Positions 34,991 to 37,156 of a stretch of 64,000 bases of DNA are shown in pieces. Position 1 is the stretch's first letter; each line of letters starts with the position of its first letter. The notes beneath the pieces are model-generated. The model worked only from the letters and a program-made list of their open reading frames with translations. It was not told the DNA's origin and searched no databases. Origin of the DNA: an uncultured Pseudanabaenaceae cyanobacterium (GTDB lineage: Bacteria; Cyanobacteriota; Cyanobacteriia; PCC-9006; JAAUQQ01). The stretch spans positions 6,360 through 70,359 of the forward strand of contig CALIJJ010000030.1 in assembly GCA_938017515.1 (NCBI GenBank), in the 5' to 3' direction. The translations under genes were made by a program, and so were the position numbers.

Positions 34991-35762
34991 AGTTCAGCGC
35001 CTTCAAGGCAAAGACCGGCAGTGCCAGCATCCGTCGCCAGCGCCAGGGCTCTTTGTAAAGCCGATAAACCCACTCCAAATTATTGTTGCGCAGCCAGCCC
35101 GGAGCCCGTTGCTTGGTGCCGGACCAGATATCGAAACTACCGCCGACGCCAATCCAAATGCTGTTGGGACAAATGTCACGATATTGCTGAATCCAAACTT
35201 CCTGGCGGGGCACGCCAAGACCCACGAGAATTAGCTGGGGTTGGAGCGCCTTGAGCCGTTCTCGCAACGCGACTTCGTCTTCACCCTGGATATAGCCATT
35301 TTCAACACCGATGATGTTGATCCCCGGTGCACGCTGTTGCCATTGCTCCGCAGCTGCGGTGATGATTTCAGGTTTGCCGCCGTAGAGAAAGACAGACCAA
35401 TCGTTTTGAGCCGAACGCCGCAGCATTTCCTCTGCTAGCTCAATGCCGGGACAGCGTTGGACAGCTTTGCCCCGTAGCTTGAGATAGAGCACCACACCGG
35501 CTCCGTCGGGAATAACGAGATCGGCGCGGCGAATGACCTGATCCAGGGTGGTGTTTTTTTCGGCTTCGATGGCCATTTCTGCGTTGAGCGTCACCACGTG
35601 AATGCTTTCTCCGGCGGTGAGGCGATCGCCCAGCCAATCGGCATAGCTATTCAGGAGCTGGATGGGTAGCCCCAGAACGGTGGCGGTTTCGGGTTGGGGG
35701 GAAGATGTCTGGGTGGACATCGGAATCTCCGGGAATGATTCGGCCAGGACACACCATAGCAA
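34980..35762 (-). CDS. WecB/TagA/CpsF-family glycosyltransferase (N-acetylmannosaminyltransferase-like)
   Basis: Family pattern VVTLNAEM, PDGAGVV, FLYGGKPE and IWIGVGGSFD. The start may be the internal Met at 35720. Confidence 0.75.
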   Translation of the reverse strand: MLWCVLAESFPEIPMSTQTSSPQPETATVLGLPIQLLNSYADWLGDRLTAGESIHVVTLNAEMAIEAEKNTTLDQVIRRADLVIPDGAGVVLYLKLRGKAVQRCPGIELAEEMLRRSAQNDWSVFLYGGKPEIITAAAEQWQQRAPGINIIGVENGYIQGEDEVALRERLKALQPQLILVGLGVPRQEVWIQQYRDICPNSIWIGVGGSFDIWSGTKQRAPGWLRNNNLEWVYRLYKEPWRWRRMLALPVFALKALNYRT

Positions 35763-35935
35763 GCTTTTGTGTCCGGCTGTTGCTGCGTTCTTTGATAAGG
35801 ATGATTACGTCCTAGATTTGACGCTTTCGGGAAACTGTTGTTAGGGTACAGGTAGGCAACGGCGGATCTGCTGTGGATTCGTGCCCAAGCCATCTTTAAT
35901 TTTTGCCATCCTCAGTTTTTCAATTACTTAGCGCC

Positions 35936-35989
35936 ATGTTCTCACCCCGATTTTACTTTTTTTGGTTTATGGAGGTTCACCGGAAGTGA
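35936..35989 (+). CDS. candidate leader peptide MFSPRFYFFWFMEVHRK (17 codons, six consecutive aromatic codons)
   Basis: The sequence reads ATG TTC TCA CCC CGA TTT TAC TTT TTT TGG TTT ATG GAG GTT CAC CGG AAG TGA. It lies 220 nt upstream of the DAHP synthase gene on the same strand, and its stop codon lies within the left arm of a 14-bp inverted repeat. Confidence 0.45.
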   Translation: MFSPRFYFFWFMEVHRK

Positions 35990-36048
35990 GCGCTAGGCGC
36001 TGATGCCAAAACTTCCGGTGAACCGCAGTCCAGGGGCTGCGGTTTTTT
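35974..36048 (+). promoter_or_regulatory. attenuator-like RNA structure: 14-bp perfect inverted repeat (GGTTCACCGGAAGT ... ACTTCCGGTGAACC) overlapping an intrinsic terminator
   Basis: The arms are at 35974-35987 and 36011-36024, with an internal palindrome AGCGCTAGGCGCT between them. The terminator stem is CCGCAG/CTGCGG (36023-36042) followed by TTTTTT. Confidence 0.5.
36023..36048 (+). terminator. rho-independent terminator (6-bp GC stem, 8-nt loop, T6) in the DAHP synthase leader
   Basis: Seen in sequence. There is no upstream plus-strand gene. Confidence 0.55.
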
Positions 36049-36211
36049 GTTGGTGATTTTTCAGGTGATGTTCATTCAACCCACAAAAAACGTCCGAAGC
36101 TCCTCACGTTTAGTCTTTTTGATCGCTTTGGCCTAATTGCTCCAGCTTTGTTGCCTGGACGTTATTGCCCTCACTCATCACTTCCCGACATCCCTTAACC
36201 TGGAGAATCCT

Positions 36212-37156
36212 ATGAAATCTGCTCCCCTCGTTGGAACCAACGCATCGCCGGCCAGTTTGTCGCCAGCCAGTCCATCATCAGCCAGTCCAACCACCCGAGT
36301 TCGGGTCGGCAACAGCACGATTGGTGGCCGCGAGATTTTCATTGCTGCGGGTCCCTGCGCGATCGAAAGCACAGAACAAATGGAGGCGATCGCTTCTACC
36401 CTTGGCCCAGCTCCCATCCAAGCCCTGCGCGGCGGTATCTACAAACCCCGCACCTCACCCTACGATTTCCAGGGAATTGGCGGTGAAGGTTTCGAGATCC
36501 TGCGCCAGGTGCGTCAGCACCATGGCTTACCGGTTGTGACCGAAGTGATGGCGGTGTCTCAAATCGAAGCTCTGTCCGAAGAAGTGGATATGCTTCAGGT
36601 GGGCAGCCGCAATATGCAAAATTTTGACCTGCTCAAGGCTCTGGGACAGGCCAATCGCCCCGTTCTGCTGAAGCGAGGTCTGGCCGCAACCCTCGAAGAG
36701 TTCGTGATGGCGGCGGAATATATCGCGAGCCACGGCAATCCCAATATCGTGTTGTGCGAACGGGGCATTCGTAGCTTCGACAACTACACGCGCAACGTCT
36801 TGGATTTGGGCGGTGTTGTTGCCCTCAAGACCCTGACCCATTTGCCGGTGATTGTGGATCCGAGCCATGCGGCGGGTCGGCGGGAACTGGTGCCCAGTTT
36901 GGCACGGGCGGCGATCGCCGCAGGGGCCGATGGCCTGATCCTGGAATGTCACCCCCGTCCCGATGAATCTATTTCTGATGCCCAACAAAGCCTCTCTCTG
37001 GAAGCGACGACAGATTTGATTGAGAGTCTGCGTCCCTTAGCAGAGGCCGTGGATCGGTCGATTGCGCTGCCGATTTTTCAGCCCAAGCGAGCCCCTCAGC
37101 AAGCCCCTGAATGTACCTCTGAACGGACTCCTGAACGAGCATTACTAGTGGCTTAG
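36212..37156 (+). CDS. aroG: 3-deoxy-7-phosphoheptulonate (DAHP) synthase, class I-beta (KDO8PS-like fold)
   Basis: Family motifs are present (AGPCAIES, GIYKPRTSPYDFQG, LKRG, VDPSHA, ILECHP). The ATG at 36212 has GGAG 8 nt upstream. Confidence 0.85.
   Translation: MKSAPLVGTNASPASLSPASPSSASPTTRVRVGNSTIGGREIFIAAGPCAIESTEQMEAIASTLGPAPIQALRGGIYKPRTSPYDFQGIGGEGFEILRQVRQHHGLPVVTEVMAVSQIEALSEEVDMLQVGSRNMQNFDLLKALGQANRPVLLKRGLAATLEEFVMAAEYIASHGNPNIVLCERGIRSFDNYTRNVLDLGGVVALKTLTHLPVIVDPSHAAGRRELVPSLARAAIAAGADGLILECHPRPDESISDAQQSLSLEATTDLIESLRPLAEAVDRSIALPIFQPKRAPQQAPECTSERTPERALLVA

Follow-up and report, generated by a model that had tools for sequence, protein, structure and literature searches.

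Does the short, aromatic-rich reading frame in front of a cyanobacterial DAHP synthase gene control that gene, and if so, by what mechanism? The gene (positions 36212–37156, plus strand) encodes a 314-aa protein of the DAHP_synth_1 family (Pfam PF00793, 243 bits) and lies in the window, the stretch of 64,000 nucleotides analyzed here. Its upstream neighbor, a WecG/TagA glycosyltransferase gene on the minus strand, is divergent, as the initial annotation had described; exbD and exbB lie downstream in convergent orientation, and the DAHP synthase gene appears to be monocistronic. That annotation had proposed that a ribosome-mediated attenuator precedes the gene.

The leader ORF (35936–35989, plus strand, as are all leader features given below) starts with ATG at 35936, comprises 17 codons (MFSPRFYFFWFMEVHRK) and ends with TGA at 35987–35989. 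Its six consecutive aromatic codons, TTT TAC TTT TTT TGG TTT (F Y F F W F; 35951–35968), are as originally read, and on both strands of the 64-kb window it is the sole ATG ORF of 6–45 aa with at least five aromatic residues per seven. The perfect 14-nt inverted repeat noticed at the outset is found with its left arm, GGTTCACCGGAAGT, at 35974–35987 and its right arm, ACTTCCGGTGAACC, at 36011–36024; we refer to the helix as P1. The left arm takes in four sense codons, the final ones of the leader, plus one base of the stop codon: the earlier statement that it contains the leader stop codon holds for T 35987 but not for the other two bases. The inner palindrome seen between the arms, AGCGC-TAG-GCGCT at 35989–36001, is predicted in constrained folds as the hairpin AGCGC-UAG-GCGCU. 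An intrinsic terminator occupies 36020–36048, with stem strands GAACCGCAGTC (36020–36030) and GGCTGCGGTTT (36035–36045), a CAGG loop and a T6 run (36043–36048). It had been placed at 36023–36048; the GC stem and T6 stand, whereas the terminator scan extends the core stem CCGCAG/CTGCGG to 11 pairs (36020–36045) and thereby moves its start to 36020. The DAHP synthase ATG at 36212 follows the T-run by 163 nt, close to the 160 nt first estimated.

Such an arrangement might be fortuitous, a T-rich spacer reading as aromatic codons beside an ordinary hairpin. Two statistics would allow this: 800 nt contain one terminator-like site against 0.9 ± 0.9 in shuffles, which is not significant alone, and the fold z-score is just −2.3 (−1.65 for the full leader). 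Comparison with relatives decides the matter. In the regions upstream of the 78 closest cyanobacterial DAHP synthase genes, an equivalent short ATG ORF with at least five aromatic residues in seven was present in 77, compared with 0/78 reverse complements, 14/884 other tiles and 9/390 shuffles. The N-termini of these leaders differ in sequence and length, yet without exception share the reading frame of the aromatic run, and the peptide C-terminus, V-H-x-x, is conserved. We designated as class A the combination of an aromatic run, x-x-V-H-x-x-stop, and a GGUUCAC...GUGAACC P1 abutting a GCAG...CUGC terminator, all of it immediately 5′ of the DAHP synthase gene. The covariance model of this class, R1, has a single match in the window (84.2 bits, E 2.5e-18), where the sequence is itself within the seed alignment, and matches 73 of the 79 related loci for which upstream DNA is available at 39–114 bits, always on the gene strand and just upstream of DAHP synthase. 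Over 505 kb, it otherwise produced just two weak cross-matches, on the class B elements (see below) of the same loci. A pattern scan of metagenomes returned 122 matches, about 100 of which were chance ones inside unrelated genes; we retained only the 22 that combine an aromatic leader with a T-run, and every true match with enough downstream DNA (19/19) precedes DAHP synthase. The initial annotation had named absence of the arrangement from orthologous regions as evidence against its reading; instead, leader, hairpin and terminator are kept across dozens of genera and many cyanobacterial lineages. This spread, the exclusive linkage to DAHP synthase, and the covariation and fixed geometry described next refute a chance origin, to which we assign a negligible probability. 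The significance of the terminator lies in its conservation, not in the scan count.

The covariation analysis of orthologous leaders that had been suggested found compensatory changes in both P1 and the terminator, which compete for the same bases. P1 and terminator helices were defined by hand on the alignment and their pairs counted, the RNAalifold consensus of the same alignment (A1) having given only the middle of P1, with outer and inner pairs lost. Among 52 distinct sequences, both sides of P1 changed at 8 of 14 pairs, and none of 500 shuffles equaled the observed score; the terminator helix was paired in 92.7% of cells (52 sequences), with compensatory changes among relatives and a covarying lower stem. 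The geometry is also fixed: of 62 class A members, 56 have the stop codon beginning 13 nt after the first G of the P1 left arm, and 53 have a gap of 5 or 8 nt behind the final aromatic codon. It is exactly the P1 left arm that encodes the conserved peptide C-terminus, which varies in step with compensating changes in the right arm. Sequence conservation of GGTTCAC and GTGAACCGCAG exceeds what pairing alone demands; dual pairing may be the reason, and a bound factor is a conceivable other one. A local mini-hairpin, UUCAC-N5-GUGAR, which includes the stop codon, is able to form in 97.7% of cells. At the site of the inner hairpin, relatives have a hairpin of other sequence (judged by eye); a role as a pause hairpin is a possibility.

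The bases for which the two helices compete are GAACC (36020–36024), at once the last 5 nt of the P1 right arm and the base of the terminator stem; the overlap had previously been given as 2 nt. Column 70 of the alignment has two partners, column 23 (UA 47, UG 5) and column 97 (AU 47, GC 5), as has column 71, with column 22 (UA 47, CG 4, UG 1) and column 96 (AU 47, GU 5). The shared AA of GAACC therefore covaries with one partner and is wobble-compatible with the other, and from these counts we conclude that both the P1 and the terminator partners are maintained. Five of the 11 terminator pairs are contested: the full stem has −17.1 kcal/mol, compared with −8.5 kcal/mol for the 6 bp left once P1 takes GAACC, and with P1 formed this residual hairpin is two bases from the U-tract. 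Given an overlap of just 5 nt and upper 6 bp that form with a probability of at least 0.95 in every modeled ribosome state, exclusion is partial and dependent on kinetics and on stem/U-tract spacing. The initial annotation could derive no clean exclusion logic between antiterminator and terminator; the 5-nt overlap at the stem base supplies part of that logic, and exclusion remains incomplete.

In addition to class A, cyanobacterial DAHP synthase genes have a second leader type, class B (for example, L023 2842–2958), which lies downstream of class A in tandem at 69 of 79 loci. Its covariance model, R2, found no class B element in the window or at the related loci L001–L004, and a decayed copy in the 163 nt before the window DAHP synthase was considered and dismissed on the same result. 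The two classes share the target gene, the aromatic-codon logic, the use of the last leader codons as antiterminator strand, and an intrinsic terminator. They differ in peptide (...SWFYGFYFWPRxSSG in class B), in helix sequences and in the extent of overlap. The class B helix strands are AGUUCCGGG / CCCGGAACU / AGUUCCGGG, that is, the leader end is identical to the terminator 3′ arm and the overlap of antiterminator and terminator is complete; both helices are about 90% paired, with 5 compensatory pairs each. Class B leaders also often have a Shine-Dalgarno sequence, with AAGGAG before the ATG in 25 of 62.

The codons themselves bear on whether the leader is translated. In class A, the run contains six aromatic residues at 44 of 65 loci, with a total composition of 184 F, 134 Y and 66 W. 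Tyr codons are divided between TAT and TAC (84 vs 69); since both occur, Tyr is retained through synonymous change. Phe codons are TTT over TTC by 188 to 27. UGA is the stop in 58 of 65 class A leaders, a preference that hints at a constraint on translation termination. No Shine-Dalgarno-like sequence was seen before the window leader ORF or in 64 of the 65 class A leaders. This last result, the high sequence conservation of the helices and the excess of TTT would suit an untranslated ORF whose U-rich run is an RNA motif within a ligand- or protein-binding switch, for instance a riboswitch or an RNA resembling a T-box or a TRAP target. We regard such a switch as very improbable. ATG, run and stop are in frame at 77 of 78 loci despite the variable N-terminus, Tyr codons vary synonymously, and class B leaders carry AAGGAG. 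The metagenomic locus L101 has a Tyr-only leader, MSARRYYYYYPNEVHPQ, in which TAC/TAT repeats replace the U-rich run while P1 and terminator are retained; with all else kept, codon identity is the variable part. Furthermore, the aromatic run is the least structured section of the RNA in predicted folds, and a search of Rfam 15 at E up to 10 matched neither a T-box nor a Phe, Trp, His, Leu, Thr or leu/phe leader family nor any other relevant entry in window positions 35600–36400 or at L021 2430–3010; at gathering score, the window and six related loci gave no match. On our reading, the leader ORF would be translated, its translation would be coupled to transcription, and the system would respond to amino-acid supply.

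We then asked where the leader transcript begins and whether it belongs to the DAHP synthase gene. The window contains a promoter of the form TTGACG-N18-TAGGGT (35818–35847), with the −35 hexamer TTGACG at 35818–35823 and an extended −10 element, TGtTAGGGT, at 35839–35847 (hexamer 35842–35847), both conserved among class A loci. TTGAC-N17–20-TAnnnT occurs no more than 190 nt upstream of the aromatic run at 59 of 65 class A loci, compared with 31 of 1620 control windows; TGn precedes TAnnnT in 57 of the 59 matches, and TAGGGT is among the recurrent −10 hexamers in relatives. Between the window and the related locus L004, the −35 TTGACG is the same while the flanking 5′ UTR has diverged, promoter and attenuator being islands of identity within a diverged spacer. 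This promoter, which we propose to be of sigma-70 type, was identified through conservation among relatives; a consensus scan returned no site for the leader region because TAGGGT matches TATAAT at just 3 of 6 positions. The −10 element originally suggested, TAATTT at 35897–35902, is present in the sequence, but nothing is conserved there among relatives, and it was rejected for this reason. With the conserved −10 in its stead, the predicted length of the terminated leader transcript changes from 110–140 nt to about 195 nt: spacing alone would put the transcription start near 35854, and the transcript would end near 36048.

A unit with a strong conserved promoter, an efficient-looking terminator and a conserved V-H-x-x peptide C-terminus, separated from DAHP synthase by 163 nt that are not conserved between the window and L004, could be a gene in its own right, whose product is a small RNA acting in trans or a small hydrophobic peptide. 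In that case, DAHP synthase would have a separate promoter within the 163 nt, and the linkage would reflect co-regulation or history. We consider this quite unlikely. A promoter scan found no promoter-like site between terminator and gene, and over 505 kb the element is confined to the position directly before DAHP synthase on the gene strand; the same placement holds for all 19 metagenome matches. The conserved C-terminus is the P1 left arm and is compensated in the right arm, whereas the N-termini of the peptide are not conserved and its aromatic run can turn Tyr-only.

The folding with a ribosome footprint that the initial annotation had recommended switched the window RNA from a P1 state, with the ribosome on the first four aromatic codons, to a full-terminator state, with the ribosome at the stop codon. 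At F6–F9, the predicted probabilities were 0.94 for the P1 inner pairs and 0.09–0.48 for the terminator lower stem; at the stop codon, they were 0.00 for P1 and 0.68 for the lower stem. A ribosome stalled at the end of the aromatic run (W10, F11) was predicted to favor the terminator. For full-length RNAs of 61 class A members, the terminator 5′ arm was paired upstream at 42% in the stalled state vs 8% with the ribosome at the stop codon, and when the RNA was cut before the terminator 3′ arm, the 5′ arm paired with the last 8 leader codons at 63% (stalled) vs 2% (stop). Equilibrium folds of full-length class B RNA favored the terminator at any ribosome position and are therefore unable to model a kinetic switch, so truncated-transcript folding was used. 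An additional pairing in the window, 35930–35945 / 35986–36001, is predicted to make the untranslated RNA terminate; it was left out of the mechanism because it is seen neither family-wide nor in L004.

In the mechanism that we propose, the conserved promoter would start the leader RNA, whose 17-codon ORF presents the six aromatic codons ahead of a P1 5′ strand made up of the four final codons and the beginning of the stop, and of a P1 3′ strand ending in GAACC, the same five bases that form the foot of the terminator stem. With an ample supply of aromatic aminoacyl-tRNAs, the ribosome would reach UGA and mask the P1 left arm; the freed GAACC would complete the 11-bp terminator beside the U-tract, and transcription would stop near 36048. 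When they are scarce, the ribosome would stall on the first aromatic codons and leave the left arm exposed, and P1 would form once the right arm is transcribed, taking the five basal terminator pairs and leaving a 6-bp hairpin apart from the U-tract. RNA polymerase would read through this weakened terminator into the DAHP synthase gene. By the fixed geometry and the masked folding, it is ribosome position that selects the structure in this model. The partial P1/terminator overlap, the mini-hairpin over the stop codon and the UGA preference would also fit a leader peptide that regulates otherwise, through translation or mRNA stability, or with reversed polarity such that P1 stabilizes or pauses. 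This is unlikely in our view: hairpin and U-tract are conserved with a covarying lower stem, the class B overlap is complete, 163 nt separate the element from the DAHP synthase start in the window, and starvation should induce a biosynthetic gene, which is the polarity of the P1 model. Overall, conservation, covariation, the fixed stop position and the modeled folds support the ribosome-mediated attenuator first proposed, and we hold with considerable confidence that the DAHP synthase leader is a transcription attenuator tied to the availability of Phe-, Tyr- and Trp-tRNA in charged form.

How does this leader relate to known systems? The initial annotation was aware of no attenuation of a cyanobacterial DAHP synthase gene, and our literature search likewise found no description of such a leader attenuator. 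The closest parallel is the Corynebacterium glutamicum aroR leader (Phe-Tyr-Phe), which is reported to attenuate aroF, a DAHP synthase gene (PMC4046766, PMC11802643), and was first noted in PMC4046766, with PMC11802643 crediting the attenuator to Neshat et al. 2014. PMC11802643 reports that ribosome stalling on the aroR aromatic codons raises transcription of the operon and that the attenuator responds to Phe, not Tyr. Both leaders place an aromatic-codon peptide upstream of a DAHP synthase gene. However, aroR–aroF belongs to Actinomycetota and has three aromatic codons, whereas the cyanobacterial leaders have 5–7, for all three aromatic amino acids, and usually form two different attenuators in tandem. 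We consider homology of the two unlikely.

The E. coli pheL-pheA and trpL-trpEDCBA attenuators, which we take to be Rfam Phe_leader (RF01859) and Trp_leader (RF00513), resemble the cyanobacterial leader in having end-product codons in a short ORF and alternative hairpins between which ribosome position decides, and in an untranslated RNA predicted to terminate, as seen for the window. The classical E. coli arrangement has four segments (pairing 1:2, 2:3 and 3:4) and carries its regulatory codons in segment 1. In contrast, the cyanobacterial leader has essentially three, the end of the leader ORF, stop codon included, being the antiterminator 5′ strand; the class A terminator overlap is just 5 nt, and no Rfam leader model matches. 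In E. coli, control of DAHP synthase itself falls to the repressors TyrR and TrpR rather than to attenuation (PMC11802643).

Two cyanobacterial elements were considered as earlier descriptions and set aside. Sml0012 of Synechocystis 6803 is a conserved 45-aa protein, detected by western blot and encoded upstream of aroQ, for which a possible role as attenuator peptide is suggested in a preprint (bioRxiv 10.64898/2025.12.20.695498). It too is a small ORF upstream of a cyanobacterial shikimate-pathway gene, but this gene is aroQ, not DAHP synthase, and the part of the preprint consulted mentions no aromatic run or terminator switch; we regard it as a different element. Searching the supplements of the same preprint turned up no leader ORF next to sll0934. 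The conserved cyanobacterial small RNA ncl0160 encodes a peptide of 23–25 aa (PMC4734099); its Nostoc 7120 probe primers are unmatched in the leader regions examined, and transcript and peptide sizes differ.

We lean, by a small measure, towards the view that these leaders are the first leader-peptide transcription attenuators recognized in cyanobacteria and form a two-class, mostly tandem, widely conserved system that controls entry into the shikimate pathway and whose codon content can be re-programmed. To our knowledge, the control described for this pathway in cyanobacteria is enzyme feedback inhibition, and our literature search found no description of control at the gene level; a conserved attenuator before the committed enzyme would fill that gap. 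The models R1 and R2 could annotate the element, which no Rfam family covers now, in cyanobacterial genomes. If our reading is true, ribosomes trail RNA polymerase in cyanobacteria closely enough for classical attenuation. We know of no demonstration of transcription-translation coupling in these organisms. The leader would be a natural, compact reporter for such coupling, which is relevant as cyanobacteria are without Rho, according to the abstract of PMC12642595. Two serial attenuators and single-amino-acid variants would provide a system for studying the combination of signals and its evolution, and removal of one or both attenuators would be an obvious step towards strains that overproduce aromatic compounds.

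The DAHP synthase gene (ATG at 36212, plus strand; Pfam PF00793, 243 bits) is preceded on the same strand by a leader ORF at 35936-35989, which starts with ATG, encodes MFSPRFYFFWFMEVHRK and carries the aromatic run Phe-Tyr-Phe-Phe-Trp-Phe at codons 6–11 (35951-35968). Downstream follow a perfect 14-nt inverted repeat (35974-35987 / 36011-36024), whose arms form the putative antiterminator helix P1, the small palindrome AGCGC-TAG-GCGCT between the arms (35989-36001), and a terminator with an 11-pair stem (36020-36045) and T6 (36043-36048). All of these elements are present as described in the initial annotation, with two corrections: of the stop codon placed within the left repeat arm, only the T of TGA lies there and the other two bases do not, and the terminator shares five bases, GAACC, with the right arm rather than two. 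The upstream neighbor, encoding a WecG/TagA-family glycosyltransferase, is divergent, as had been reported; downstream, exbD and exbB are convergent, so the DAHP synthase gene looks monocistronic. The synthase N-terminus includes three 15-nt direct repeats (36243-36286) in an Ala/Ser/Pro low-complexity stretch, ASPASLSPASPSSASP, and this N-terminal extension aligns poorly to most relatives, whose matches start at query residue 19-37.

By themselves, the local signals are weak, and it is the comparison with relatives that decides: the shuffled 800-nt region yielded 0.9 terminator-like sites on average, and fold z-scores were only -2.3 and -1.65. We compared the 80 closest of 483 confirmed DAHP synthase relatives (synthase identity 60-83%), a sample that lies outside the model strains and picocyanobacteria and consists almost entirely of loci labelled cyanobacterial, from many families. 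A short ATG-initiated ORF with at least 5 aromatics per 7 residues was found in 77 of the 78 loci having sufficient upstream DNA, compared with 0/78 on the reverse strand, 14/884 in other tiles of the loci and 9/390 in shuffles, which ignore phylogeny. On both strands of the window, the leader ORF is the single ORF of this kind.

Leaders upstream of the related synthases sort into two types. In class A, to which the window element belongs, the peptide ends in ...YFYFWF-x-x-V-H-x-x-stop, and the ORF end GGUUCACCGG... is complementary to ...CCGGUGAACC, which adjoins the terminator GCAG...CUGCGGUUUUU. In class B, the peptide ends in ...SWFYGFYFWPRxSSG-stop, and the final codons AGU UCC GGG have the same sequence as the terminator 3′ arm and are complementary to the 5′ arm CCCGGAACU. 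The class A covariance model has one match in the window (35958-36062, 84 bits) and matches 73 of 79 loci, invariably on the gene strand and just 5′ of the synthase; thus, the arrangement of peptide, hairpin and terminator first read from the window recurs in orthologous regions. Apart from those matches, the 505 kb searched contained only two weak cross-matches, both to class B elements of these loci. The class B model matches 75/79 loci (including L023 2842-2958 and L021 2672-2786), with no match in the window or its four nearest relatives, L001-L004. Class A precedes class B in 69/79 loci, class B lying between the class A terminator and the synthase gene. The distribution of the two models thus gives 69 loci with the tandem, six with class B only, and the window's lineage with class A only. 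Two Calothrix class B elements (L044 2790-2924 and L067 2782-2916) lack the usual stop codon after UCCGGG, and their ORFs extend ~20 codons across the terminator hairpin into the T-run, which should change or abolish the switch. L005 (JBLNEP010000075.1), a contig labelled Actinomycetota MAG and probably mis-binned, encodes a DAHP synthase of cyanobacterial type (72% identity), preceded by leaders of both classes.

Covariation upholds the proposed helices. In the 54-sequence class A alignment, 84% of the P1 cells are paired, and 8 of the 14 pairs show changes on both sides (arm variants GUUCGCC/GGCGAAC, GUUCAUCGG/CCGAUGAAC and GGCUCACC/GGUGAGCC), and the P1 covariation score was reached by 0/500 shuffles, which ignore phylogeny; for the terminator, the paired fraction is 92.7%. 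Judged from the alignment, the informative positions are both A's within GAACC, the segment common to the two helices. A G at the first A goes with C in the terminator partner (AU 47, GC 5) and an unchanged U in the leader partner (UA 47, UG 5); a G at the second goes mostly with C in the leader partner (CG 4, UG 1) and an unchanged U in the terminator partner (GU 5). Both pairings are therefore kept by selection, as an alternative-helix switch predicts. The class B antiterminator and terminator follow the same pattern, at 89.6% and 91.2% paired, each with 5 compensatory pairs. The P1 left arm can also form a local 5-bp hairpin, UUCAC-N5-GUGAR (window 35975-35990; class A alignment columns 22-26 / 32-36), which encloses the stop codon and is possible in 97.7% of cells; it is almost invariant, with one compensatory case (L022). 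UGA is the stop codon in 58/65 class A leaders, a preference this hairpin may explain.

The leaders also bear marks of being read by ribosomes. Their N-termini differ in sequence and length, yet the ATG, aromatic run and stop remain in frame, with both TAT and TAC used for Tyr. The stop starts exactly 13 nt past the first base of GGUUCAC in 56/62 class A members and immediately follows UCCGGG in 59/62 class B members. A Shine-Dalgarno-like sequence precedes 25/62 class B leaders versus 1/65 of class A. Metagenomic contig L101 (2196-2440) has the complete class A architecture with a leader, MSARRYYYYYPNEVHPQ, in which Tyr is the sole aromatic codon type. That codon identity is altered with all else kept is hard to account for except by codon reading. 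A second Tyr-only leader (MLMTQSYYYYRR..., YYYY) with its own terminator follows, and then a DAHP synthase (63% identity); from their sequences, these tandem leaders may represent Tyr-specific isoenzyme control.

A promoter pattern, TTGAC-N17-20-TAnnnT, precedes the class A leader in 59/65 loci versus 31/1620 control windows, with an extended -10 TGn in 57 of the 59. In the window it corresponds to TTGACG (35818-35823) and TGtTAGGGT (35839-35847) on the plus strand, which replaces the TAATTT (35897-35902) initially taken for the -10 element. Between the window and L004, promoter and attenuator are identity islands within a diverged spacer. We infer a transcription start near 35854 and a terminated leader RNA of ~195 nt. 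The predicted 5′ UTR is unusually long (~80 nt) and contains a tandem direct repeat, GCCATCTTTAATTTTT / GCCATCCTCAGTTTTT (35889-35920); from the -10 end to the start of the aromatic run it measures 103 nt, whereas the median in relatives is shorter, at 64 nt.

Rfam 15 gave no family match, even at E up to 10, which places the element outside the curated Phe, Trp, His, Leu and Thr leader families and the T-box family. It would share its working principle with the curated amino-acid leader attenuators but has its own three-segment layout, in which the ORF end serves as antiterminator strand. Functionally, the nearest precedent comes from Corynebacterium glutamicum, where the aroR leader (Phe-Tyr-Phe) stands in front of the DAHP synthase gene aroF (PMC4046766, PMC11802643). 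In the full text of 7.7 million PubMed Central papers and of bioRxiv, a scope outside which most subscription-journal papers fall, no leader-peptide attenuator of a cyanobacterial DAHP synthase was found. Attenuation, aromatic amino acids and DAHP go unmentioned both in a 2026 RNA-structure survey covering 202 cyanobacterial genomes and in a 2025 preprint about transcription termination in cyanobacteria; in a Synechocystis ribosome-profiling preprint (bioRxiv 10.64898/2025.12.20.695498), attenuator speculation is limited to Sml0012 before aroQ. The conserved peptide-coding RNA ncl0160, considered as an earlier description, was judged unrelated to this leader. The element is apparently undescribed, although an earlier description may exist; attenuation by leader peptide is itself already known.

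Window RNA was refolded with a 28-nt ribosome footprint masked. When one of the first four aromatic codons occupies the A site, the P1 inner pairs reach 0.94 and the terminator lower stem 0.09-0.48; a ribosome at the stop codon removes P1 (0.00; terminator 0.68), in keeping with the ribosome-mediated switch originally proposed. For the last two aromatic codons, the corresponding values are 0.64 and 0.71 on W10 and 0.00 and 0.95 on F11; with no ribosome they are 0.14 and 0.87. In the ribosome-free fold, 35930-35945, the start-codon region (AGCGCCAUGUUCUCAC), pairs with 35986-36001, comprising the stop-codon region and inner palindrome, and the full terminator is predicted; the pairing resembles 1:2 of the trp leader and shows no conservation in L004 or across the family. 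The U-tract GTTTTTTGTTGGT (36042-36054) is complementary at 12/13 bases to ACCCACAAAAAAC (36079-36091), 24 nt away, and could be sequestered by it in read-through transcripts; the latter region is not conserved in L004. Folds across the family agree: the terminator 5′ arm in full-length RNA is paired upstream 42% when the ribosome is stalled versus 8% when it is at the stop codon. In RNAs cut off ahead of the terminator 3′ arm, a stalled ribosome leaves 63% of the 5′ arm in class A and 70% in class B paired to the final eight codons of the leader; once the ribosome has reached the stop codon, this falls to 1-2%.

The weak point of the class A model is that P1 contests only 5 of 11 terminator stem pairs, and the predicted leftover 6-bp hairpin (-8.5 versus -17.1 kcal/mol for the full stem) still forms, two bases off the U-tract. 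Together, the window and family-wide folding results point to classical attenuation of DAHP synthase by the leader peptide as the best, and a quite probable, explanation. Ample aromatic aminoacyl-tRNA would bring the ribosome to the stop codon and lead to transcription termination; scarcity would stall it early, letting P1 form and transcription read through into DAHP synthase.
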